From an uncultured Planctomycetota bacterium (GTDB lineage: Bacteria > Planctomycetota > Planctomycetia > Gemmatales > Gemmataceae), in the NCBI GenBank assembly GCA_963849325.1, contig CAWKHF010000005.1:864001-928000 (forward strand): DNA of 64,000 nucleotides, written 5' to 3'. The notes beneath the pieces were generated by a model. That model was given only the letters and a program-made list of their open reading frames with translations, was not told the origin of the DNA and searched no databases. The translations under genes were made by a program, and so were the position numbers. Below, piece after piece: positions 3,561-60,369 of the stretch (the first letter of the stretch is position 1; each line of letters begins with the position of its first letter).

Positions 3561-3622
3561 CTCTCCGAGCCTGAAGCGTAAGCGAAGGAGCATCCCTTCG
3601 CTTACGCTTCAGGCTCGGAGAG
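3561..3622. repeat. REP-like palindrome, family A (second copy at 30142-30197)
   Basis: 28-bp arms CTCTCCGAGCCTGAAGCGTAAGCGAAGG and its reverse complement. Confidence 0.9.
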
Positions 3623-13631: not shown

Positions 13632-15040
13632 TTACATCGCTTGCACAACCGTCACTTGCCGCGTTTGATTCGTCTTCGTGTCCCAAATGCGAATCGATAT
13701 CTGAATCGCCTGCACGATCGGGCCGGACTGAAGTAGCGGAATTCCACAATGGAATGCTCGTGTTTGTCCGTTGGCTGTTCCAAATCGAGTAGTTGGCCGG
13801 TGAGAAGGCGGAACCTGAAACTATCGTGACGCTGCTCCAGGTGTCGAAGACCATCGGTCCTGTGACCGGGTTGAAAGATGTTCGGGTTGCCGTTGAAATA
13901 GTTGGCGGGGCGACAGGTGCATTGGTGAACGTTCCGGGTTGAGCAGCGTCACGAACGGTTCATCGGGAAATGTGGGGTCTGTTATAAGGAGGGCCGTAGA
14001 ACCCCGCGTATATTAGCGGCCAGCAGGCGCACGTCGAAGGACACCACATCGGTCAGCTGGATGTCCGCCCCCTTGAGGGTCGGACGGCAATTGCCATAGG
14101 GCCAGGCTCGGATAACCCATGGTCGAATACCGGCTCGGGCGGATAGTCTGCCATCACATAATCTTGCAATCCGAAAGGGGGTTCAGGAGGCCCAAGTATC
14201 ATGCCGAAACGCCGGTTCGGCACGGTCAGGTCGCTAGGGTTATTGAAGTATATAGAGTATGTATTCGCCGGGGCGAGATTGGAGAAATATACATCCATGG
14301 CTCATTTCGAGGAATGGCTGAACAAGCGCTTCTGGAACGCCTAAATTCCCGCGGGCACCGAGAAGGCGATGGACTGCGGGGGCACCAAACTGTTGTCGGG
14401 CACGCACAAGCGCTGATTGCGGCACAGCGTCCACAGCGGCGGCCCTCCCGCGCCTGCCGTGTCCTGAAAGTTCGTATTGGGGTCGCTCTGCGGCAGGAGG
14501 AACCATGTCACCTCGGCCCACTGGTAATTGTAGGTGCTGGTTGACGTTTGATACCTGCGCTTCCATGGGACCGAAACCGTGATCGAGCCGAGAAGTTGTC
14601 CGCTTCCGGACGGCCCCGAGGTAAAGAAATCACCCTGCTGATTGCCGCGCAGCTTGACCGTGAAGGAGATCGTGTGATCGACGCTGAGAAAGGAGCTAAT
14701 GCCGTCGATGTCTGTCCCTTCAAGAACGCTGGAGCTACCGGGAACTGCGGAAGGCGGACTGCCGTGCCAGACCCGGAAGAAACCCTGCTGCGGCGGACCG
14801 TTGACCCAGAAATTCGGATTGCTGAGACGCTTCGTGCCCTCGAAGTGGTCGGCGGCCAGGTCGTGCTGCATCATCGCAGTAACGGCACGCAACTTGTTGG
14901 CCATGTCGCCGACGGCCTTGAGGTTGCGGAACGTGTTCGTCGCGGACACGAACGCCTGCGACAGGATGGCCATGATGAACATGATCAGGGCCATCGCCAC
15001 CAGCAGTTCCACCAGCGTAAAGCCGTTGTCGGCGTCGCAT
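13632..15040 (-). CDS. PilW/GspJ-like minor pilin, split by indels
   Basis: GFTLVELLVAMALIMFIMAIL prepilin motif; ends ...IRIW...RQVTVVQAM*. Confidence 0.8.
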
Positions 15041-15108
15041 GGTCGATGCTCCCAGATGCGCCGGACGGGCCGTTGATGAGGTGGATAAAAAAACTCCGGT
15101 CCATCCGC

Positions 15109-16060
15109 TTAAGGTTGCCAGCTAAACCCCTTATCGAAAACTTCCACCGCGTAATCCATGACCACGACCTGGGAAACGTTGCCGATCGGGTTGGGCTGCA
15201 CGTCGAGTGCCGCCGATCCGGCCCCCGTGTCGGTCACGTTCACGACGCGATAAAAATTCGCTTGCGGAACGGCGGGAATCCCAGGCACTCCGGTTCCAAA
15301 GATCGGCGTGGTATCGAGGATCGATATCCCGCGCTTGAGGTTCGGCGACTGCGTTGCGGGGTTCCAATTCAGAACCAATCCACCCCCGGCGACGCTGGCG
15401 GAATAGGTCTGTTCGATGGTGGGTACGAGGGTCGGCCGACCGCTGTAGACCACCACGGTGACATCGACCGTCGTATTGGACCACGCTTGCGGCCGACGTA
15501 GCATGTACGCCCAGCTGTACCGCCGGCCGCGCTCGATACTGCCGCCGCTGAGGTCCGGTGTGCCGTTGGGAAGGAAAGTAATGTCGTTGGGCAAGCTGAA
15601 CCATCGATCCACCAACGGCATCGCCACGGGCGGAGACGGCAGAGGTATCGTCAGGGGCAGGCCGATGAAACTGACGAGGCCTGCGCCGGATGAGCGGCGG
15701 AGAGGTGCCCAGGGTACTCATCCCAGAGGGATCGACGTAGACCGGATAGCTCGGCCCCGTGTACCACGGGGGCAAAGTCAAATTTCCCGCGTTGGATTGA
15801 ACGACGAACAGATTGGGTAGGGTCTGACTCGGATCACCCGTTATCCACAGATCCTGACGGAGGTTCTTGGCGAGGGCGACCTGCTCGGCCATGCTGGCGG
15901 CACTGGTACAGCGGTCGTCCTTGAGGGCCTGGCCCATGGTGACGGCGCCCAGTGGGAACAGCGCCAACAACGCCAGCATGCCGATAGCCATGATGAACAT
16001 GGCCACCAGCACTTCCATCAGCGTAACAGCGGGCCGTCGTATCATGATGCGTATCTCCAT
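15109..16060 (-). CDS. PilV/GspI-like minor pilin, split by an indel
   Basis: AVTLMEVLVAMFIMAIGMLALLALFPLG. Confidence 0.85.
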
Positions 16061-16063
16061 CGT

Positions 16064-17083
<1,020 letters not shown>

Positions 17084-17098
17084 GACCTCCGCCGGCGA

Positions 17099-18095
17099 TT
17101 ACGGGGTGCTGAACAGGTCGTCGTTGTAGGTAACCGGCGTCATCACCGACAACCAGATCGGATCGAAGCTCGGGTTCTTGCCCCTGTTGTCCCTGTCCGG
17201 CCCGGAGGAGGCGAGCATGGGCATGAGCTTGTACGAACAATTGCCTCCAGCCAGCGGTTGCAGGGTCAACTGCGTGAAGAGGGTCGTATTGCGCTGGACC
17301 AGGCCTGGCTGTTCAGTAAGCCCTGGGGATCGCCCGGATCGTTGATGCCTGGCTGCCCTCCGCTGGGAACCTGGGGATTGCTGTTGACCAACGGACAACC
17401 GGCCGGGACTGCGCGTGAAATACAACGGCTGTCCCCACGCATCCACATAAGCGCGGATGCTCTGGTTGCCTCCCAGGGGGATACTCTGCGTCGAGCCGCC
17501 GGTGCCAACGTCTCCACTTCCGCCGCCGCCGCTCTGCGTCCGTTGCATGGCCATCAGCAAGCACGCCGCGGATTCGTAAGGTTGAGGGCTGTAGGCCGCG
17601 CGACTCACATACGCTTGGGTGATCCCCAGGTTGTTCAGGTAGCTGACATAGGCCGGCAGCGGAGGCAGCGGCGAGGCCGGAACGATGGGAGATATTCCCA
17701 GTTGAGCCAGTTGCGGGTTGTTGTACTGAACGCCCAGTGCCTCGCCGAAGTTCATCGGGAACAGCTGGCGCATTCTCAGCTTCACATAGACCACGTGAAA
17801 CGCGCCGTGGCATTGGCGTCCGTCCCCGCTAGGTTGAGAGCTTGCACGCTGGGGGGGATCGTTTCTCTGAGAGCCTGGTCCTTGGCGGCGGACCATTGCT
17901 TGTTGAGGGCCGATTGGAGCTTGTTCAGCGTCGTTTGCGTATTGCCCACTTCCTGCACGGACAGATACTTCAACACGGCCGAGGCGCCATGCGCCAGCAG
18001 CGCGGCGATGATGACGGTGACCACCATCAACTCGATCAGCGTGAAACCGTCCGGCGCCTGGCGCCGGACGGAGTATGGACCTCGATTCGTGGCAT
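17099..18095 (-). CDS. Prepilin-type (GspG-like) protein, split by indels
   Basis: GFTLIELMVVTVIIAALLA; DAWGQPL; SSGPD motif. Confidence 0.8.
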
Positions 18096-18115
18096 GACCG
18101 ATCCTCCTCGATTCC

Positions 18116-19066
18116 TTATTGTCCGGCGCCCAGGGTGCCGCTGGCGAAGTTCGCCTGGTCATCGTAACCGGGAGTACCCCTGGTCACGCCGCCCGCGGGA
18201 TTCCACGGATAGAACCATTCGTCGCCGTACCGAACATGACATCCTTCCCCGCCGAAATGATCTGGTAGGTGTTGTTGTTCGTGAAGTTCGCTGTGCCGGC
18301 GGCTGTCATTTCAAAGTACGGCCAGGCGGCGATGGATGCGCAGTCTCCCCCGACTGCGGATGTCACGGGGTTGTAGCCGTTGATTTTTCCTGCGGAGCTG
18401 AAGAAGGCATACGGTTTCGGTGTTTTAATGCTCCAGTCATCTACATAGACGGGGAACGAGCCGACGGGACGGAGACGCGCCGGGTTGAAGTTGAAGTAAG
18501 GGCCTTTGCGCTGCGTACCTGCACTGGCAGGAGTCGCCGGCCCCATGGGGTTTGCCGGGCTGACCACCACATTCGGCGAAAACCCGGTCATACTGACGCC
18601 GCTGGCCGTGGAAATCGGAATGCCGCCCAGGTAAAAGACGAGACACTGTTCGCCTTCCAAGACATACATTTCGTTGGGGTTGCCATTACCGTTCCAATCG
18701 CAAATCGCCGAAGTCACGCTGAAGCTGCGCCCAAACCACTGCTGGAGGAAAGCGACCGTCTGGGCGGCCAAGGCGGCATTCACCGGGCCTTGAGCACCAC
18801 CGATCACCGCCGCATATTGACTGCCATTTTCGCACAGAAAAAGGCAGCTGGGCGGCGGCGTGCTGAGATTATAATCCGACATGAAGCCGCCAGGGCGACT
18901 TCCAACTGCCGATCTCCGTGCGCGTCTTCACCTCCGGGATCTTCTCCATCGCCTTCATCACCGCGGCGGCCGTCAGGCTCACCAGGACGGCGATGATGGT
19001 GATGACCACCATCAGCTCGATCATCGTGAAGGCCGACCGCGTCTTCCGCGAATGGATGCGTATCAT
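18116..19066 (-). CDS. Prepilin-type (GspG-like) protein, split by indels
   Basis: AFTMIELMVVITIIAVLVSL; YQIISAGKD..FG; DDQANF. Confidence 0.8.
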
Positions 19067-19105
19067 GAGTGTCTCCTTGTGTCGCGCAAGCCGCAAGCGG
19101 CCTCT

Positions 19106-20349
19106 CTACTTGCTCAACCCTTCCAGCAGTTTGATCAGCGGCATGAACAACGCGATCACGATGGTGCCGATGATGAAGCCGAGCACCACGATCATGAGCG
19201 GCTCCAGCAGGCTGATGAGGCTCTCGACCATCACGTCCACTTCCTCATCGTAGACATCGGCGATCTTGTAAAGCATCGTATCCAGGTCGCCGGTCTCCTC
19301 GCCGACGTCGATCATGTTGACCACCATGTCATCGACCAGCCGGCTCTCCTTGAGCGGCTGCGCGATGGTGTCGCCCTCGCGGATCGACTCGTAGACGCGC
19401 TGGTACATGCGCTCGAAGACGGCGTTGGTGCAGGTCTCGCGGACGATGCTCAGCGCCTCCAGGATGGGCACGCCGGAGCTGACCAGCGTGCCCAGCGTCC
19501 GCGTCGTGCGGGCCACGATCGTCTTCTCGATCAGCGGGCCGACGATCGGTATCCACAGGTAGATGCGGTCCAGGGCGTACGAGCCGGTCTTGTTGAGGCG
19601 GATGAGCTTGATCATCAGCCACCAGCACAACGGGAACAGCGGCAGGACGTACCAGTAGTTGGCGAACCAGCGCGACGTGGCCATCAGCGCTTCGGTCAGG
19701 GCCGGCAGCTTCATGCCGAAGTCCTTGAAGATCTTCTCGAACTTCGGAATGATGTACAACATGATGAAGGTCAGGATGGCCACCGCCGTCAGGATGACCA
19801 CGACGGGATAGACCATGGCGCCGGTGATCTTGCGTTTGAGGCTCTGCGCCTTTTCCTTGAAGTCGGCGAGGCGTTTGAGAATGACTTCGAGGGCGCCGCC
19901 GGCCTCGCCGGCCTTGACCATGTTGACGTAGAGACGATCGAAGCATTTGGGGTGCTTGGCGAACGCCTCCGACAGCGTGCTGCCGGACTCGACGTCGTCC
20001 ACCACGTCGATCAGCGCGTTTTTGAGGACGCCGGGCTTCATCTGATGTTCGAGGATGCGCAGACTGCGCAGCACCGGCAGGCCGGCGTCTTGCAGGGTCG
20101 AGAACTGGCGCGTGAAGGTGCAGAGGATTCTTGCTGGAGACGCCGCCGATGGTGAAGGTTTGGCCCTTCTTTCTCTTGCGCGCCCTTCTTGCCCTTGGCC
20201 TTCTTGGCGCCGGCCATTTCCGTGATCTTGGTCACGAAATAGCCCATTTGGCGGATCTTTTGTTGCGCTTCTTCCTCGCTCATGGCCTCGACGGAGTCCT
20301 TGACCTCTCCGCCGCTGGTGTCCATCGCCTCGTACTTGTAGGTCGGCAT
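19106..20349 (-). CDS. pilC: Type IV pilus/T2SS platform protein PilC/GspF; indel near 20125
   Basis: MPTYKYEAMD; AGEAGGAL; GAMVYP; VGEETGDL; LLEP. Confidence 0.93.
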
Positions 20350-20358
20350 GACGCCCCC

Positions 20359-20391
20359 AAAGTTCTGAGTTCTGAGTTCTGAGTTCTGAGT
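20359..20391. repeat. Heptamer tandem arm AAAGTTCTG(AGTTCTG)3AGT, left inverted repeat
   Basis: Perfect 33-bp reverse complement of 20831-20863. Confidence 0.95.
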
Positions 20392-20409
20392 AAGAACAGC
20401 GAGCGTCAT

Positions 20410-20790
20410 CTAGCGATTGTCGCAGTACCGCTCGACGGACGCTCTCAGACCTCCAATAACCCGGCCCACTTCTTCCGCTTGTTGGAGAAATTGGGCAAAG
20501 ACTTCTTGATCCAAGTATTCCGCGTCGAACGCAACATACAACTGAGAACGAACTTCGGCACAGGATCCTTTCGCAATGCGAAGGAAGTTGTGAAACTCCG
20601 CCGACGTTCCTTTCTCGAACCCCTCCGCCACGTTCGACATGATCGATACCGCGGCCCTACGAATCTGCTCTCGAAGACCATAATCCCGAGCGAACAACCC
20701 TGTCCGCGTCACTCGGTAGATTGCTTTCGTTAGTAATCGCGCCTTCTGCCAGGCGATCAAGTCCTCGAATCGCTTGACCCCCGTACTCAC
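20410..20790 (-). CDS. Four helix bundle protein (23S rRNA intervening-sequence/Avd-like family)
   Basis: [10 protein letters not shown]...[21 protein letters not shown]...[19 protein letters not shown] start after GGAGG. Confidence 0.93.
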
Positions 20791-20830
20791 ATCTGGTCCC
20801 TCCGTCTGAGCCTCGACTGCTCCGTCTTGC

Positions 20831-20863
20831 ACTCAGAACTCAGAACTCAGAACTCAGAACTTT
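20831..20863. repeat. Heptamer tandem arm (ACTCAGA)4ACTTT, right inverted repeat
   Basis: Read directly from the sequence. Confidence 0.95.
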
Positions 20864-20867
20864 TTTT

Positions 20868-22848
20868 CTAGCCCTCATCTTCCAGCACGGTTTCGCGGAC
20901 CACTTCCTCGATGGTGGTGACGCCATCGTAGATGGCGTGCAGGCCGGACTCGCGCAGACCGACCATGCCGTGGCGCAGGCAGGCCGCCCGCAGCTCGTCG
21001 GTCGAAGAGCCGGCGGAGATCATGTCGCGCAGGTCGTCGTTGATGATGACCAGCTCGTACAGGCCGGTGCGGCCGCGGTGGCCGGTGTTGTTGCAGCGAT
21101 CGCAGCCTCGACCGTAGTAGAACTTCTTGCCCTTGACCTCCTCCGGCCGCATGTTCAACTCCATGAGCATCTCGGCCGACGGCTCGAACTCGGTGCGGCA
21201 GTCCTCGCAGATCTTGCGCACCAGGCGCTGGGCCAGGATGGCCTCGACCGTGGCCGTGATCAGAAACGGCTCCAGACCCATGTCGCGCAGGCGCGTGATG
21301 GTGCTGGGCGCGTCGTTGGTGTGCAGGGTGCTGAAGACAATGTGGCCGGTCAGCGACGCCTGCACGGCGATCTGCGCCGTCTCCAGGTCGCGGATCTCGC
21401 CGACCAGGATCTTGTCGGGGTCCTGGCGCAGGATGGCCCGCAGCGCCGAGGCGAACGTCAGGCCGATCTCGTGGTTCATCTGGCACTGAATGATGCCGTC
21501 GATGTCGTACTCGACCGGGTCCTCGGTGGTGATGATCTTCTCGCTGATGACGTTCAGCTCGTTGAGGGCGGAGTACAGCGTGGTCGTCTTGCCGGCGCCG
21601 GTCGGGCCGGTGACGAGGATGATGCCGTTGGGCTTGCCGATGACCTGGCGGAACTCGGCCAACAGTCTGCGACGGCATGCCGATCTTGTTGAGGTCCAGC
21701 GACACGACGGTGCGGTCGAGCACGCGGATGACGACGCTCTCGCCGAACATGGTCGGCAGGATGCTGACGCGCATGTCCACCGGATTGCCGCCGACGTTCA
21801 GCTCGATGCGGCCGTCCTGCGGCATTCGGCGCTCGGCGATGTCGAGGTTGGACATGACCTTGATGCGGCTGGAGATGGCGTTGGCCAGGTGGCGCGGCGG
21901 CGGCACCATTTCGTAGAGCACGCCGTCGCAGCGGTAACGCATTTTGTACTCTTCCTCGAACGGCTCGAAATGGATGTCGCTGGCGTGGTCCTTGATGGCC
22001 AGCAGGAACACCATGTTGATGAGCTTGCGGACGGGGGCGGCCTCGGCCATCTCGAACATGTCTTCCAGGTCGATGCTGGTCTCGGCCCGGCGTTTGCCCA
22101 GCTCGGGGTTGTTCTCGATCTCCGTGATGATGTCGATGATGCTCTCTTCCTTGCCGGCGTAGGCCTTGGCGATGGCCTCGTCGATGGCCTGCGGCGTGGC
22201 CAGCTGCGCCTGCACTTCGTTGATGTTGAGCAGGTTGCGCAGGTCGTCCAGGGCGGCGAGGTTGTTGGGATCGCCGATGGCGATGGTCAATACCTTGTCC
22301 TTGAAGGACAGGGGAAGCACCTTGTAGACGCCGGCCATGGTCTCGGGGACGAGTTGGGTGGCCTCCGGCGTCGGCTTGGTCTCTTGCAGGTTGGCGACCT
22401 TCAGTCCGTGCTGTTCGCCGAGAGCTTGCAGCAGTTGGTCCTCGGTGATGAGGCCGCGTCCCATGGCGGCCTGGCCGATCGGCTGGGCGGTGTTCTTGGC
22501 CTCTTCGAGGACTTCCCACAGCTGGTCCTCGTCGAGGAAACCGAGATCGACGAGGACCTGGCCGAACTTGCGACGGCCGCCGGCCGAGGTGTTTTTGGCG
22601 GGGCTTTTCTTGGCGGGGGCCTTGGCGGCGGGTTTGCCGCTGCCGGCCTTGGAGACCGGCGCCGCCGGTTTGCCCGTCGGCACAGCCGGTTTACCGGCCG
22701 GCGCGGCCGGTTTGCCCGTCGGTGCGGCCGGCTTGATGGACCCGGAGACCGGCTTGCCCGCCGGCGGTTTGCCCGCGGGCGGCTTGCCGGACGCCGCGCC
22801 CGGTGGAGTGGGTTTCTTGGGAGGTATCGATTCGTTCGGCGCCGCCAT
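20868..22848 (-). CDS. pilB: GspE/PilB ATPase (copy 1) with Pro/Ala/Gly/Lys-rich N-terminal extension; indel near 21665
   Basis: [37 protein letters not shown], CxxC...CxxC. Confidence 0.93.
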
Positions 22849-22892
22849 ACCAGGTGCTCCTCAGCAAGATGCCGGACAGGATCACGTTCGCC

Positions 22893-22955
22893 GTTTCGCC
22901 GCGACGCGCAGCGGAGCGCGGGACTGACGCGCTCCGCTGCGCGTCGCGGCTAAAC
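22893..22955. repeat. REP-like palindrome, family B (second copy at 60303-60369)
   Basis: GCCGCGACGCGCAGCGGAGCGCG...CGCGCTCCGCTGCGCGTCGCGGC. Confidence 0.9.
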
Positions 22956-22973
22956 AAAAGACATTTCTGGCGA

Positions 22974-24147
22974 TTAGCGACGAATGCCCCGACGAGGGGG
23001 ACTTTCGTCCTCATCCTCGTCCTCGTCGTCCTCATCCTCGTCCTCGTCGTACTCTTCCTCCTCGAAGTCGCCGCGCTCGGCCAGGGCGAACTTGGCGGCC
23101 AACTCGGCGGGCTTGGCGGCGCGAAGGAGGGCCTCTTCCTTATCGACCAGCTGGTCTTTCCACAGCTTGAACAGGCTCTCGTCGAGCAGGAACATGCCGT
23201 GCTTGCGGCCAGTCTGGATGCTGGAGTCGATGCGATAGGTCTTGTTTTCGCGGATGAGGTTCTGGATGGCCGGCGTCACGACCATCATTTCGTAGGCGGC
23301 GATCACGCCCTCGGGCTTCTTCGGCAACAGCGCCTGCGACAGCACGCCGATGAGGGCCGTCGAGAGCTGCGTGCGGATCTGGTCCTGCTGCTCCTTGGGA
23401 AAAACGTCGATGATGCGGTTGATGGTGCTCGACGCCCCGCTGGTGTGCAGCGTGCCGAAGACGACGTGGCCGGTCTCGGCCGCCTCGATGGCCGCGTGGA
23501 TCGTCTCCAGGTCGCGCATTTCGCCGACGAGGATGATGTCGGGGTCCATACGCAAGGCCCGGCGAATGCCCTCCTTGAAATCCGGCACGTCCACGCCGAT
23601 CTCGCGCTGATTGACCGTGCATTTCTTGTGCTTGTGGAAATACTCGATCGGGTCTTCCAGCGTGATGATGTGGCGATCGTAATTGTCGTTGATGAAGTTG
23701 ATCATGCTGGACAGGCTGGTCGTCTTGCCCGAGCCGGTCGGTCCCGTCACCAGCAGCAGACCGCGCGGCCGAGTGATGAGGCGCTTGATGGCCTCCGGCA
23801 TGCGCAGGATTCTCGAAGGAGAGAAACTGGCTGGGGATGCGCCGCAAGACCAGGCCGATGCTGCCGCGCTGTTTGAAGACGGCGACGCGAAAACGATAGC
23901 CATCGGTGAACTCGATGGCGAAGTCCGAGCCGCCCTTCTGCTGCAACTCCTGCTGGCAGCGGTCGGGGGTAATGGACTTCATCAAGGAGGTCGTGTCGTC
24001 GCTATCCAGCGACTTGGTGTCCAGGCGGCGCATGCGGCCGCTATGGCGGATGACGGGCGGTTGTCCCACGGTGATGTGCAGATCGCTCGCCTTGAGCTGG
24101 ATGACCGTGGCCAGCAGTTTGTCAATCAGCGGCGTGGTGGCAGCCAC
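22974..24147 (-). CDS. pilT: Retraction ATPase PilT with acidic C-terminal tail; indel near 23815
   Basis: ASDLHI, GPTGSGKTT, EDPIEY, LRMDPDIILVGEMRD, AAETGH, AIQNLIRE. Confidence 0.93.
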
Positions 24148-24471
24148 AAGAACTCCTCGCCAATCAAGAGGACCATCGGTTCAGCCGAGAGGGTTCCCCG
24201 GCCGGCCTTGCGAAGCGCAAAGCGGAAGGTTCCACCCGGCGCCGGGTGGGCCTTCACAACCTCAGGCGTTGGGCGCGTGAGCTGTGAGACACAGCCGCTC
24301 AGAAATCGAGCAGGACGGGTTCAATGTCCTCACCCGCATTATCCGTTGCCGGTTGTGAAGGATCAATTCATCGCAACAAAAAAACCAATACCGAACGCCG
24401 AAGGCGAAAATCCGAAATCCTCCCTCGGAACCGCAAAGGAGGCATTCCCTCGTCTCCCTACTCCTTCCCCT

Positions 24472-24593
24472 CTCGTTCCCAAGCTCTGCTTGGGAACGCC
24501 CGGGTGCGAAGCTCTGCTTTGCGTCTCGCCCCCCCATCGCAACGGGAAGCCGAGCTTCCCGACGTGCGTTCCCAAGCGGAGCTTGGGAGCGAG
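24472..24593. repeat. Composite REP-like palindrome
   Basis: CTCGTTCCCAAGCTCTGCTTGGGAACG ... CGTTCCCAAGCGGAGCTTGGGAGCGAG with internal hairpins. Confidence 0.85.
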
Positions 24594-24639
24594 GAGGGAA
24601 GCGCCACAACCTTCCGCCTTCGGTATCCCTCGCCGGGGG

Positions 24640-26346
24640 CTAGAGGGACGATTCGTGATGGCAGGTGGACAGCACTTCCTCCAGGGTGGTCATGCCCGTA
24701 AGTGCTTTGTAGAGTCCATCTTCCAGCAAGGTACGCATACCGAGGAGCCGAGACTGACGACGGATGGTTTGCGTCGGTTCGCGTTTGAAGGTCATCTCGC
24801 GGATGGCCGAGGTCATCTTCATCATTTCAAAGATGCCCTTGCGGCCGCGATAGCCGGTGTGGTTACAGTGACTACAGCCGCGCCCGCGCATGAAGGTGGC
24901 GGTCTTGAGTTGCTCCGACGTCAGGCCAGACGCCTTGATTTCGGCGTCCGAGGGTTGGTCGGGAGCCTTGCATTTTGGGCAGATCACACGCACCAAACGC
25001 TGGGCCATAATAGCGATAACAGAGGAGGCAACGAGGAACGGTTGCACACCAATATCGACCAAACGTGTAATGGCGCTGGGCGCATCGTTCGTATGCAATG
25101 TACTGAAAACCAAGTGTCCAGTTAAAGAAGCTTGCACCGCGATTTCAGCGGTCTCATGGTCGCGGATTTCACCGACGAGGATGATGTTGGGAGCCTGCCG
25201 CAACATGGCGCGAATGATGCGCGCGAAGTCCAGTCCGATCTGATGTTTCACCTCGACCTGATTGATGCCCGGCAGATAATACTCGACCGGATCCTCGGCC
25301 GTGATGATCTTGCGATCCGGTCGATTCAGTTCGTTAAGGGCGGCGTACAGCGTCGTGGTCTTGCCCGAGCCGGTCGGTCCCGTGACCAGGAAGATGCCGT
25401 TGGGCCGTTTGATGATCGACTGGAAGCGGCGATAATCGTCCTCCGCGAACCCCAGGTCTTTAATGCTCACCTGTATACTACTGCGGTCGAGGATGCGCAT
25501 GACGCAGGTCTGCCCCATGTTGGTCGGCAGGAGGCTGACGCGCAGGTCGAAATGCTTGCCGGCGATGCTCATCTTGATGCGGCCGTCCTGCGGTCGCCGC
25601 TTCTCGGCAATGTCGATCGATCCCATGATCTTGAGACGAGACAGCATGGGGGCGAGCAAGCGCCGCGGCGGACTGTCGCGCTCGACCAACATACCGTCAA
25701 TGCGATAGCGGATGCGCACGCGGTCGGCGAACGGCTCAATGTGGATGTCGCTGGCCCGCAGGCTAACCGCCTCTTGAATGATCAAGTTACATAACTTGAC
25801 GACCGGAGCATCGCTCTCCTCGAAGGAGGTGGACGAGGTCGCCTCGGTCTCGGTGAAGTCGATGGCCGTATCGGTGAACTCGGCGAGCATGGAGTCCACC
25901 GATTCGGTTTCGGACTGCCCGTAGTGGCGGTTGATGGCCTCGATGATCTGCTCGCGCGGGGCCAGGACCGGCTGAATGTCTTTGTTCAGGATGAACTGGA
26001 GCTTCTGAACGGTGTCGAAGTCGCTGGGGTCGCTCATGATGATCTTGAGCGCTCCGTTGTCCTGGGCCAGGGGCAGGACGACGTTCTCGCGGGCCACCGA
26101 TTCGGGCACCAGTTCGACGACGGCGGGAGGGATCGTCACCTCGGTGAGGTCGATGAACTGCAAGCCGTGGAACTCGGCGATGGCCGTCATGATCTGTTCC
26201 ATCGTGGCGTATTCCAGCTTCAGCAGGGCGTCCTGGATCTTGACGCCGGTCTGCTGCTGGAGTCCCTTCGCCTCCTCCAACTGATCGGAGCTGAGGACTT
26301 GACGGCGAACGAGGATGTCCGTGAAATCGCCACGCGACTTGGCCAT
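24640..26346 (-). CDS. pilB: GspE/PilB ATPase (copy 2)
   Basis: Intact ORF from MAKSRGDF; Walker [25 protein letters not shown], Zn motif. Confidence 0.93.
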   Translation of the reverse strand: MAKSRGDFTDILVRRQVLSSDQLEEAKGLQQQTGVKIQDALLKLEYATMEQIMTAIAEFHGLQFIDLTEVTIPPAVVELVPESVARENVVLPLAQDNGALKIIMSDPSDFDTVQKLQFILNKDIQPVLAPREQIIEAINRHYGQSETESVDSMLAEFTDTAIDFTETEATSSTSFEESDAPVVKLCNLIIQEAVSLRASDIHIEPFADRVRIRYRIDGMLVERDSPPRRLLAPMLSRLKIMGSIDIAEKRRPQDGRIKMSIAGKHFDLRVSLLPTNMGQTCVMRILDRSSIQVSIKDLGFAEDDYRRFQSIIKRPNGIFLVTGPTGSGKTTTLYAALNELNRPDRKIITAEDPVEYYLPGINQVEVKHQIGLDFARIIRAMLRQAPNIILVGEIRDHETAEIAVQASLTGHLVFSTLHTNDAPSAITRLVDIGVQPFLVASSVIAIMAQRLVRVICPKCKAPDQPSDAEIKASGLTSEQLKTATFMRGRGCSHCNHTGYRGRKGIFEMMKMTSAIREMTFKREPTQTIRRQSRLLGMRTLLEDGLYKALTGMTTLEEVLSTCHHESSL

Positions 26347-26662
26347 GTGTACAAACTCCAGGAAGTACGGACCCGGGGAGCGCGGAGGAAACCGTCTCGG
26401 TTCATTCGGAGACCCACACGACCGTGTGGGAGCTACACGTCCGCGATCGGCAAGACTTGTCCAGCCTTTCGCAAGGCAACGGAACAGGTTGTTGTTATTC
26501 AGAATACGCCTCCCGCGCCAGTCCTTCAAGAGAAAAGCACCTCGGCTGGCGCGGATTCGTGCCGCACAGATTGTCGCCGTGCGGGAATAAACGCTCGGCT
26601 CTCGGATCGAAGGAAATAGGTAGTGGCCGCTAACTTCTGCTGGCGTTCCGAGGAGAGCAGTC

Positions 26663-27064
26663 ATGGGATACGGCCTGCTCGCGGACGGGATCGTGGCGCT
26701 TCACGTCGCTTATGTGAGTTACGTCGTGCTGGGTCAGCTGGCGATCTGGCTGGGGCTGGCCTTGGGATGGCGCTGGGTCCGCAACAGGTGGTTCCGCTGG
26801 ACGCACTTGCTCATGATCGCGATCGTGGCCGGGGAGGCGATCCTGGGTATCGAGTGCCCCCTGACGCGCTGGGAGAGAAACCTGCGCGAGTTGGCTGGGC
26901 AGGCGACGAGCGGTGAATCGTTCGTCGGCCGGTTGCTCCACGAGCTGATCTTTGTGAGCTGGCCGCCGTGGGTCGTGAATGGCCTTCACGTCGTCTTCGC
27001 CCTGGTGGTGCTGGGCACTTTCGTTCTGGCCCCGCCGCGCGGGATGGGCGAACGGCCGGCGTAA
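26663..27064 (+). CDS. DUF2784 family membrane protein
   Basis: LADGIVALH...H......CPLT.WE..LR. Confidence 0.85.
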   Translation: MGYGLLADGIVALHVAYVSYVVLGQLAIWLGLALGWRWVRNRWFRWTHLLMIAIVAGEAILGIECPLTRWERNLRELAGQATSGESFVGRLLHELIFVSWPPWVVNGLHVVFALVVLGTFVLAPPRGMGERPA

Positions 27065-27111
27065 GCCGGCTGGTGCGGTCCAAACCAGCCGGCTTACGCC
27101 GGCCGTTCGCC
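27047..27111. repeat. REP-like palindrome, family C (more copies at 56205-56322)
   Basis: GGCGAACGGCCGGCGTAAGCCGGCTGGT and its reverse complement; supplies the stop codon of the upstream gene. Confidence 0.9.
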
Positions 27112-34398: not shown

Positions 34399-34463
34399 GT
34401 GCTTTTCCCTTGGTTTCGTTTCGTTTCGAGCCGCTTGCGGCTTGGAAGCTCTCCCAAGAAGAA

Positions 34464-34567
34464 CCTCACGCAAAGGCGCAAAGAACGCAAAGGAATAGAG
34501 AATAAAGATCCAAGTCACTCACGCCTATTGTTGTCTTTCTTTGCGTTCTTTGCGCCTTTGCGTGAGG
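34464..34567. repeat. Inverted repeat with arms built from CGCAAAG 8/9-mer units and an AT-rich 46-bp spacer
   Basis: 29-bp perfect arms CCTCACGCAAAGGCGCAAAGAACGCAAAG at 34464-34492 and 34539-34567. Confidence 0.92.
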
Positions 34568-34594
34568 ATTTTGGTTAGAGGCTCTTAACCGATG

Positions 34595-37856: not shown

Positions 37857-37942
37857 AGTTCTGAGTTCTGAGTTCTGAGTTCTGAGTGAAAGAAAGAAGG
37901 AGATGTTTTTCACTCAGAACTCAGAACTCAGAACTCAGAACT
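37857..37942. repeat. 'Empty' heptamer inverted-repeat element: (AGTTCTG)4AGTGAAA - 16 bp - reverse complement
   Basis: 35-bp perfect arms with the same unit and copy number as the arms flanking the four-helix-bundle gene. Confidence 0.95.
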
Positions 37943-49663: not shown

Positions 49664-49806
49664 TGTCTGTCCCGTAAGCCCCTCTCCCCCGTACTCGGGG
49701 GAGAGGGGTTGGGGTGAGGGGGCGGCGAACCTGCGGAAACCGCACCCCCTCACCCCCAACCCCTCTCCCCCGAGTACGGGGGAGAGGGGGGCTTACGGGA
49801 CAGACA
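49664..49806. repeat. Long composite palindromic REP-like element between convergent genes
   Basis: TGTCTGTCCCGTAAGCCCC...CCCTCTCCCCCGTACTCGGGGGAGAGGGG...GGCTTACGGGACAGACA. Confidence 0.9.
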
Positions 49807-51699: not shown

Positions 51700-51772
51700 T
51701 GACCCCGAGGGGATTCGAACCCCTGTCGCGGCCGTGAAAGGGCCGTGTCCTGGGCCTCTAGACGACGGGGCC
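51700..51772 (-). tRNA. tRNA-Glu (TTC), CCA not encoded
   Basis: Reverse complement GGCCCCGTCGTCTAGAGGCCCAGGACACGGCCCTTTCACGGCCGCGACAGGGGTTCGAATCCCCTCGGGGTCA folds as a cloverleaf. Confidence 0.97.
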
Positions 51773-51904: not shown

Positions 51905-52699
51905 ATGACGGCCGACGAGGTACGGACGATTCTCGAACAGGTCCACGCCGGGCGGCTGAGCGTGGAGGCGGCGCTCGGCCAACTGCGGGAAGCGCCGTCC
52001 GTGGCGGATCTCGGTTTCGCCCAGGTCGATCTGCACCGCCGCCAGCGCTGCGGCTTTCCCGAAGTGATCTTTTGCGAGGGTAAAACTCCTCAATGGGTCG
52101 AGGGCGTCGTCCGCCAGTTGGCGGCGGCGAACCAGGACTGTCTGGCCACGCGCGTCAACGTCGAGCAGGCCGCCTATCTGGCGCAGCTCTTCCCGCAGGC
52201 CGAGCAGGACCGTGTGGCCCGCACCTTCTGGCTGCCGGCCCAAACGCCGGCCGCGCCCGCCGGCCGCGTCGTCGTCCTCACGGCCGGCACCAGCGACTTG
52301 CCGGTGGCGCAGGAAGCCGTCGTCACGTCCCGCGCTCTCGGCTGCGACGTCAAACTGCTGGCGGACGTCGGCGTGGCCGGCATTCACCGTCTGCTGCGCC
52401 ACCGCGAGCAGTTCGCCGGCGCCGACGCCATCGTTTGCGTGGCCGGCATGGACGGCGCCCTGCCCAGCGTGGTCGGCGGGTTGGTCGATTGTCCGGTCAT
52501 CGCCGTGCCGACCAGCATTGGCTACGGCGCCGCCTTTCAGGGGTTGGCCGCGATGTTGACGATGCTCAACGCCTGTTCCGCCAATGTCGTCGTCGTCAAC
52601 ATCGACAGCGGCTTCAAGGGCGGCTACGTGGCGGCCCTCATCGCTCGCCGGGCCACCAAGACGAATGAACCACAGATGAACACAGATAAACACGGATAA
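51905..52699 (+). CDS. larB: Nickel-pincer cofactor biosynthesis protein LarB
   Basis: DLHR..RCGFPEVIFCEGK, AGTSDLPVA, DVGVAGIHRL, AGMDGAL, VPTSIGYG, VVNIDSGF. Confidence 0.93.
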   Translation: MTADEVRTILEQVHAGRLSVEAALGQLREAPSVADLGFAQVDLHRRQRCGFPEVIFCEGKTPQWVEGVVRQLAAANQDCLATRVNVEQAAYLAQLFPQAEQDRVARTFWLPAQTPAAPAGRVVVLTAGTSDLPVAQEAVVTSRALGCDVKLLADVGVAGIHRLLRHREQFAGADAIVCVAGMDGALPSVVGGLVDCPVIAVPTSIGYGAAFQGLAAMLTMLNACSANVVVVNIDSGFKGGYVAALIARRATKTNEPQMNTDKHG

Positions 52700-52754
52700 A
52701 GAAGATTTATTGAATTCTTTATCCGTGTTTATCTGTGTTCATCTGTGGTTCATT
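52664..52754. repeat. Inverted repeat with arms of ~10-mer units (CACAGATGAA/CACAGATAAA/CACGGATAAA) and an 11-bp spacer
   Basis: 40-bp perfect arms at 52664-52703 and 52715-52754. Confidence 0.95.
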
Positions 52755-56204: not shown

Positions 56205-56322
56205 GGCGAACGGCCGGCGTAAGCCGGCTGGTGGGATCCACACTAGCCGGCTTACGCCGGCCGTTCGCCCCGTAAGCCGGCTGGTGGGATCCACACTAGC
56301 CGGCTTACGCCGGCCGTTCGCC
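56205..56322. repeat. Family C REP with tandem partial duplication (BIME-like)
   Basis: CGTAAGCCGGCTGGTGGGATCCACACTAGCCGGCTTACGCCGGCCGTTCGCC occurs twice. Confidence 0.9.
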
Positions 56323-56327
56323 CTGAA

Positions 56328-60302: not shown

Positions 60303-60369
60303 CGTTTAGCCGCGACGCGCAGCGGAGCGCGGGCTTTTCCCGCGCTCCGCTGCGCGTCGCGGCTAAACG
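60303..60369. repeat. REP-like palindrome, family B copy 2
   Basis: CGTTTAGCCGCGACGCGCAGCGGAGCGCGGG...CCCGCGCTCCGCTGCGCGTCGCGGCTAAACG. Confidence 0.9.

Follow-up and report, generated by a model that had tools for sequence, protein, structure and literature searches.

The four-helix-bundle gene between pilB and pilC, at positions 20359 to 20863 of the window (the whole 64,000-nt stretch of DNA analyzed here), is part of a repeat-bounded cassette. The best explanation, to which we give an even chance of being correct, is a selfish cassette of the intervening sequence (IVS) type that resides in mRNA junctions. The unit consists of a heptamer arm, a ribosome-binding site with the four-helix-bundle gene and the inverted arm, and it points in the direction of the upstream gene. 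This cassette has been gained and lost at many unrelated junctions, nearly always at or just past a stop codon. Its decay proceeds by deletion, and hairpins that have its unit but no gene are spread over the genome.

At the pilB-pilC junction, a first-pass annotation had described a gene within 33-bp perfect inverted arms of (AGTTCTG)4, and this description holds. The arms are 33 nt long, 100% complementary and spaced by 439 nt, each containing 4.4 copies of AGTTCTG. On the strand of the gene, the 5' arm (20831-20863) begins 4 nt past the pilB stop codon (20868-20870), and the 3' arm, (AGTTCTG)4.4 followed by AAA (20359-20391), ends 9 nt before the pilC start, an ATG at 20349. The enclosed gene (TIGR02436/PF05635; 20410-20790, minus strand) encodes ~126 aa if read from the presumed GTG start. 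Its reading frame stays open as far as 20832, and the GTG at 20790 is the likely start codon, as it is preceded at a distance of 7 nt by a Shine-Dalgarno-like GGAGGG (20798-20803, minus strand), read off the sequence. Its GC3 value is 0.61 compared to 0.95 in pilB, which makes the gene foreign by composition. A search of the cassette revealed neither a sigma-70-like promoter nor a terminator-like site, and no Rfam family is present within it; the sole Rfam match of the window is a tRNA gene (51700-51772, minus strand). In the predicted fold of the minus-strand RNA, both arms are paired with each other (z = -6.3 against 100 shuffles). Among RNA sequencing runs, the best have a word share of at most 0.13, and the contigs compared derive from other organisms, barely touch the gene and are thus uninformative.

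The upstream host gene is the ATPase gene pilB/gspE (20868-22848, minus strand; ORFs 20868-21662 and 20875-22848) and the downstream one is pilC/gspF (19106-20349, minus strand; ORFs 20038-20349 and 19106-20074), each of them apparently broken by an assembly frameshift. Both lie in a type IV pilus/type II secretion cluster (window 14341-26664), where pilT and pilC occur together with two pilB-like and several prepilin-like genes; assembly frameshifts apparently split many of these. Judged by its genes, the host is probably a planctomycete.

In profile searches, the enclosed protein reached 117 bits against TIGR02436 (cut-off 24) and 126 bits against PF05635 (cut-off 33.8), and it stayed below the cut-off of the Avd profile NF033474. 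Its predicted structure (pLDDT 96) has the four-helix fold of the Xcc0516 type, with a TM of 0.87 to Xcc0516 (2GSC). The model also resembles BT_0352 and, more weakly, Avd (4DWL, TM 0.75), so that the structural kinship to Avd named in the first-pass annotation is supported by the prediction. The same comparison revealed no transposase fold. Invariant residues of the protein are S, N, E-G, S and E. The homolog structures 2GSC and 2RLD contain 5 chains each, and the family is stated to be pentameric (PMC4990558).

To place the cassette in its genomic context, the genome was scanned for perfect period-7 arrays and then for inverted pairs of these, yielding 448 arrays and 164 pairs. Ten of the 164 pairs have the reverse order and are all at least 388 nt apart; because of this distance they are read as gaps between elements and were dropped. 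The 154 same-polarity pairs are built from AGTTCTG (58), AGGGAAT (43), AGGGGTC (11), AGGGACT (11) and the units of smaller families. A loop of more than 250 nt is present in only two of the 154 (439 and 405 nt), and these two contain the only two TIGR02436 genes of the genome, one for each major unit (AGTTCTG and AGGGAAT). The chance of such an enclosure arising at random is ~4e-8, drawing from ~7,475 crude gene calls. Among the heptamer-armed pairs of this genome, TIGR02436 is the only type of gene enclosed. All other pairs are gene-less, among them 57 empty copies of AGTTCTG and 42 of the unit of the second paralog, so that the earlier proposal of a cassette bounded by repeats and occurring both filled and empty is borne out. 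Furthermore, at least seven unit families have no matching gene in the assembly.

The arms of AGTTCTG elements are exactly 31 nt long, the equivalent of five AG cores, in 54 of 116 cases, and copy numbers range from 2 to 15. All 38 AGTTCTG loops of at least 12 nt are distinct and free of a gene remnant, and a remnant was found in no loop of at least 40 nt (best E 0.49). One 16-nt loop occurs twice in the genome, and 50 pairs of loops at different sites exceed the score threshold for relatedness, in comparison to 1-6 in 20 shuffles. Since loops are related across sites, their sequences suggest that empties are copied as empties. The orientation of related loops with respect to transcription has no clear polarity (28 same and 18 opposite; 23 and 17 if only the best partner is counted). 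On the sense strand, the loops are rich in A (58 vs. 27, p = 0.001).

No excess of target-site duplications was observed, neither for the 154 pairs (16/154, where shuffles gave 11.1 on average and 19 at most) nor in a longer window (10 vs. 7.9). As the enclosed protein has no transposase fold either, a reading as a classical MITE is not supported. The single Y1 transposase match of the genome (PF01797) is located at C2:573643, away from the cassette. A bias of G-U over A-C on the RNA strand, as selection by wobble pairs would leave, is absent from filled stems (65 vs. 59) as well as from empties (12 vs. 11). No match to the reverse transcriptase family PF00078 (RVT_1) was found in the genome, which is 84.7% complete, and retro-mobility by an enzyme of the host itself was rejected on this basis. 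An RNase III gene is present. The two 23S genes of the genome align to the complete model along 2881-2884 nt, which leaves no room for an IVS-type insert.

The cassette had been presented as one half of a special filled/empty pair, the other half being a same-armed hairpin at 37857-37942 with a 16-bp interior. This hairpin is real: its arms (37857-37891 and 37908-37942) are 35 nt long and 100% complementary, and the loop has 16 nt. It has the CACTCAGAACT..T-run end in common with the filled cassette; as the flanks differ between AGTTCTG copies when the elements are compared, the T-run is regarded as lying outside the element. The pairing itself did not survive. The twin is one of the 57 empty AGTTCTG pairs and therefore no unique partner of the filled cassette, and a four-helix-bundle gene is present at its site in none of 27 relatives, the gene order being conserved in about half of them; in four genomes of the same genus the site is bare. 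A formerly filled site was rejected because of this count and because the loop contains no gene remnant. In place of the last ~13 codons of the upstream gene (minus strand), our genome has the element, and, judged by homologs across a frameshift, its arm would provide the stop codon of this gene (TGA at 37923-37921). Two relatives, G007 (L194) and G009 (L191), harbor arms of other units at this site, with the left arm in frame within the coding tail. In both of them, the native-looking 'AA-stop' end makes up the end of the loop and the first unit of the right arm. This hinted that loops might be captured host DNA, but nothing of this kind is seen at ribosomal-protein junctions.

The placement of the elements was determined with a crude gene caller and, as a second method, a local strand caller. 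A stop codon is located within 15 nt of an arm in 123 of the 131 elements with a gene call, at a median distance of 2 nt, and in 40 of 125 elements the stop lies inside the arm. For six other repeat classes, the corresponding numbers are 24/46, 1/17, 106/150, 134/221, 25/31, and 4/17. With the crude caller 91 elements lie between co-directional, 31 between convergent and 7 between divergent genes (25 uncalled), and with the local strand caller 65, 13, and 0, respectively (76 uncalled). The statement that elements never occur between divergent genes was dropped, as it holds for the local strand caller (0/78) but not for the crude calls (7/129); what is observed is a depletion only, 7/129 compared to a background of 397/2757.

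Other hairpin systems are present in the same genome. An empty hairpin class represented at window 34459-34572 has 24 two-arm copies, and arms of this type enclose the single GxxExxY (PF13366) gene of the genome (L219:1440-1910; G000:C1:350012). Another class, built from a 10-nt unit, is represented by perfect inverted arms of 40 nt at window 52664-52754; this class has 34 two-arm copies, and it is the one with a stop within 15 nt in 25/31 cases. Further REP-like palindromes lie at window 3561-3622, 24464-24601, 27047-27111, 49679-49789, 56205-56323, and 60303-60369; two-arm copies were counted for four of these classes and number between 21 and 250. Long (ATGGCGC)n arrays at G000:C10:167159-167407 and C12:1157064-1157239 are unpaired, unlike the paired elements.

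Presence and absence of the cassette among relatives had been proposed as a check, and the pilB-pilC junction indeed occurs in filled, decayed, empty, and bare states. Within a set of 31 genomes, of which 21 match the TIGR02436 family, the pilC start and the upstream pilB were recovered in 24. Four of these 24 junctions are filled, one holds a truncated remnant, one a possible remnant and two are empty. Five contain unrelated hairpins and 11 lack evident arms (five of 11-29 nt and six others), all of these being judged by eye. The filled junctions are ours, those of G003 and G008 with AGTAGTC arms and that of G021 with AGGAGCC-type arms. The proteins of the latter three are only 34-41% identical to ours and belong to another clade, hence the site has been filled at least twice. 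In G026, the 33 C-terminal codons of a gene resembling that of G021 (64% identity) remain together with one arm, and G009 and G011 carry empty doublets of other units. In G016, arms surround a possible gene stub; as its match is not significant, a deleted gene is suggestive at most.

A comparable turnover is seen in the ribosomal-protein operon, which was compared at 15 junctions in 11 genomes of the same genus. Here, six junctions bear a hairpin in most of the 11 genomes and three are bare in all of them. The hairpin is either a heptamer doublet of varying unit or an unrelated REP, and a gene-sized insert was found at none of the 15 junctions. G009 carries an empty AATGCAG doublet in the overlapping junction of two genes, which from their translations we take to be rpsE and rplO; the junction is bare in the other 10 genomes. 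This insertion is accompanied by a ~19-nt duplication that restores the ribosome-binding site and start codon, and it is the only case of a duplication. Such junctions resemble slots for hairpins, in which unrelated hairpin families occupy the same junction (L236, L237 and others) and neighboring junctions are bare.

Outside this genome, the best 80 matches in genome contigs (62-72% identity) come from many phyla, and 76 of them have full flanks. An inverted repeat with a score of at least 14 encloses the gene in 65 of these 76 close homologs, compared to 0 of 78 displaced controls; together with the enclosure of both paralogs, this confirms that arms are enriched around members of the family. 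Among the relatives, arms enclose the gene at 22 of 28 non-self loci. For metagenome loci found with the second paralog the number is 20 of 37, some of the 17 failures being truncated.

The unit was then compared with protein identity for 99 distinct full-length armed proteins from 139 loci, a sample that is dominated by two clades and in which kin are not independent. Unit distance drops as protein identity rises (Mantel r -0.82, 0/2000 permutations). A TGAG core is present in 60 of 63 proteins at least 55% identical to ours, compared to 2 of the 36 others, one of which (L023) groups with our clade on the tree. Within the 63 proteins of our clade 13 units occur, with the core retained; the sister clade (47-58% identity) mostly has other units, and a distant clade uses 8-mers. 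On the level of sequence comparison, this coupling shows that gene and arms travel together across phyla. It shows co-travel and not binding, since most of the sample comes from two clades and plain co-inheritance would give the same picture. In a survey of 151 genomes of the order, TGAG arrays were present in all five genomes whose homolog reaches 59% identity or more and in 31/146 others. At least 15 TGAG hits were found in 4/5 genomes with the cognate gene and in 4/146 others, i.e., four genomes contain this many arrays without a homolog of the clade.

Of 101 loci examined, the upstream gene is co-directional in 52 of the 55 that could be called, and in 38 of these 52 no more than 8 nt separate its stop from the arm. 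The 105 called neighbors belong to 69 families; those outside the window were named by BLAST to this genome and by recognizing their translations. Hot spots common to phyla were not apparent (2/33, one being pilB itself, against a background of 168/5040). A phage as vehicle was rejected, as our protein as query found no relative among viral contigs. Plasmid records match in 29 cases, and of six inspected by eye, five have two arms and one has a single arm. On an Azospirillum plasmid, the same gene-in-hairpin layout is present inside a 23S rRNA gene.

Two loci deviate from the usual siting. At L004:1415-2060 (G020), the whole cassette lies within a DNA-methylase-like ORF, presumably of the DUF1156 type. 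The host frame stays open through both arms and the overprinted gene, with further in-frame heptamer relics beyond; alternative frames are open in only 2 of 246 for genes of this kind. At L115:1290-1945, the cassette is inverted between its arms in comparison to L075, L081, and L093, whereas the junction has the sense orientation in eight other cyanobacterial loci. This inversion may reflect recombination across the arms or an effect of assembly.

For the IVS-type cassette, the following course can be proposed. The host operon would transcribe the cassette by read-through, and the arms would fold into a stem of ~33 bp, which by analogy with the rRNA IVS of Coxiella may be cleavable by RNase III. 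The protein is expected to be a pentamer like Xcc0516 and Avd and, following the example of Avd, could bind its cognate heptamer arms, with about five AG cores per 31-nt arm. Such binding would allow the cassette, and in trans the empties, to be copied into new junctions; since the protein has no known catalytic fold, the copying would have to be done by enzymes of the host or other enzymes. Many empties would then persist as REP-like hairpins in permissive junctions. In favor of this IVS-type reading we counted the enclosure of both paralogs, the arms around 65/76 homologs vs. 0/78, gain and loss at junctions, the Mantel link, the related loops, the rpsE-rplO insertion, the 31-nt mode, the 23S layout in Azospirillum and Coxiella, the stem-loop binding of Avd, and the RNase III gene. 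Against it we counted that a general target-site duplication, RVT_1, a transposase fold and the wobble bias are all missing, that TGAG arrays without cognate gene, gene-less unit families and armless metagenome loci exist, that unrelated REP hairpins occupy the same junctions and that the Coxiella ORF is probably untranslated.

The part of the protein in this spread could also be a passive one. It is conceivable, if somewhat unlikely, that REP/REPIN-like heptamer hairpins are spread by another factor, be it a repair/recombination route of the host or an unrelated transposase, and that the gene is inert cargo captured once. The lack of a catalytic fold in the predicted structure, the persistence of empties without a cognate gene, the unrelated GxxExxY gene in the same hairpin type with its own empty family and the one Y1 transposase of the genome would all fit, and co-inheritance alone would explain the link between clade and unit. 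Inert cargo, however, hardly accounts for one protein family being enclosed in almost every clade despite differing units, while heptamer arms enclose no other gene in this genome. Nor does it account for units that drift (13 among 63) around a TGAG core that stays, or for the enrichment of arrays in genomes with the cognate gene (4/5 vs. 4/146 at 15 hits or more). At the other extreme, there might be no element at all, slippage yielding the heptamer runs and fold-back repair mirroring them. Copy numbers from 2 to 15, the 38 distinct AGTTCTG loops of at least 12 nt and the two relatives in which arms surround a native-looking gene end at the twin site are what such a mutational by-product would leave behind. 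We regard it as highly improbable and largely refuted by the polarity census, the enclosure of homologs and the link between unit and clade: 154 pairs have one order and the 10 reverse ones are each separated by 388 nt or more, loops at different sites are related and, at ribosomal-protein junctions, do not stem from the host, the 31-nt arm mode is sharp, and unit and protein clade go together across phyla.

Alternatively, the hairpins may have been domesticated, i.e., selected as post-transcriptional elements that tune operon stoichiometry through cleavage by RNase III, protection of 3' ends or stalling of ribosomes at stops, with mobility being secondary. The pentamer would then be an RNA-binding regulator that autoregulates via its own arms, a stoichiometry that resembles that of TRAP. 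The proximity of stop codons (within 15 nt in 123/131 elements, above six other repeat classes) is in line with this regulon, as are the A-rich loops on the sense strand (58 vs. 27, p = 0.001) and the fact that some ribosomal-protein junctions carry hairpins in the majority of the 11 genomes, whereas others never do. For E. coli, REPs within 15 nt of the upstream gene are reported to regulate translation (10.1101/2024.07.17.603846). We nevertheless consider a regulon unlikely, since the gene is patchy (21/31 genomes), sites turn over fast and any hairpin class occupies the same slot, a wobble bias on the RNA strand is absent, and one cassette is inverted at its site (L115) and another lies within a coding frame (L004).

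Returning to the IVS-type cassette, a broader version can be put forward tentatively, and we hold it to be possible rather than probable: S23p/Avd-like pentamers read a clade-specific code of 7-8 nt, one unit per subunit, and drive transposase-free hairpins to translation stops. Such pentamers would have both their own and gene-less hairpins copied without a transposase or reverse transcriptase of their own and without target duplication. If true, this would jointly explain rRNA IVSs, the excess of heptamers in bacteria and the origin of Avd.

The system joins three puzzles, namely the function of S23p/PF05635, the movement of rRNA IVSs and the richness of many bacteria in heptamers, and the hairpin cassette offers a testable source for bacterial 7-base repeats. 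With two paralogs, two units and 57 + 42 empty copies, this genome represents a good test bed, in which cognate and non-cognate binding can be compared within one organism. Should the protein read a repeat code specific to its clade, it would constitute a new family of nucleic-acid binders with sequence specificity, and possibly also a new type of mobility. New here are two cognate pairs in one genome, a junction filled repeatedly and a measured link between clade and unit, as well as the negative outcomes for duplications, wobble bias and reverse transcriptase.

Among known systems, the heptamers of Xanthomonas, Nostoc, and Beggiatoaceae and the cyanobacterial STRR, which are heptamer repeats, share with our elements the intergenic tandem 7-nt units (here 448 arrays and 164 pairs). 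In Xanthomonas, GGGAATC heptamers form 70-75 inverted pairs, and Nostoc heptamers are likewise described (PMC4692102); in Beggiatoaceae, TAACTGA runs stand directly ahead of start codons (PMC4679880). G-quadruplex or translational roles have been proposed for these heptamers (PMC4692102, PMC4679880), and a term search of the two main texts found no mention of a four-helix-bundle or intervening-sequence gene. A general link between S23p and heptamers was not found stated in the literature searched, for the most part the main texts of openly accessible papers.

REPIN/RAYT systems are similar in that a single repeat-flanked gene is accompanied by many extragenic doublet hairpins near stop codons (10.1101/2024.07.17.603846). 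In contrast, a HUH/Y1 transposase is not what our gene encodes, and it is enclosed within a single hairpin whose arms consist of tandem heptamers. With MITEs, the empties have in common that they are short, non-coding and present in many copies (57 empty AGTTCTG elements) with terminal inverted repeats; they differ by the lack of a general target-site duplication, the apparent lack of a cognate transposase and their variable loops. The Avd pentamer is described to grip an RNA stem-loop with all five protomers (10.1101/2023.10.23.563531). Our protein is predicted to share its fold (TM 0.75 to 4DWL), but has only 14% identity to it, scores 20.9 vs. the required 80 bits in NF033474, and no linked reverse transcriptase was found in the genome.

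The closest known case are ORF-bearing 23S IVSs. The IVS in helix 45 of the Coxiella 23S rRNA contains an S23p ORF, a 28-bp terminal stem and two to three tandem heptamers GACAGAT; RNase III cuts at the first repeat, and the ORF is probably not translated (PMC4990558). As far as this account goes, the likeness comprises a loop gene of the same protein family that is read in transcript sense, terminal inverted repeats (28 bp in Coxiella, 33 bp here), tandem heptamers and decay by deletion of the ORF. The first-pass annotation had called the system undescribed, and this is true only in part: a gene in a hairpin with heptamers has been published for the Coxiella IVS (PMC4990558), as have inverted heptamer pairs for Xanthomonas (PMC4692102), but the siting in mRNA junctions and the REPIN-like empty copies set our system apart from the Coxiella IVS. 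In contrast to 23S IVSs, our cassette lies between protein genes (pilB-pilC), has a good ribosome-binding site and is accompanied by dozens of gene-less copies. It has the long stem around an S23p ORF, sense to the transcript, that characterizes an IVS and not the location in an rRNA gene; being outside rRNA, our element is presumably IVS-like in its working and no IVS proper.
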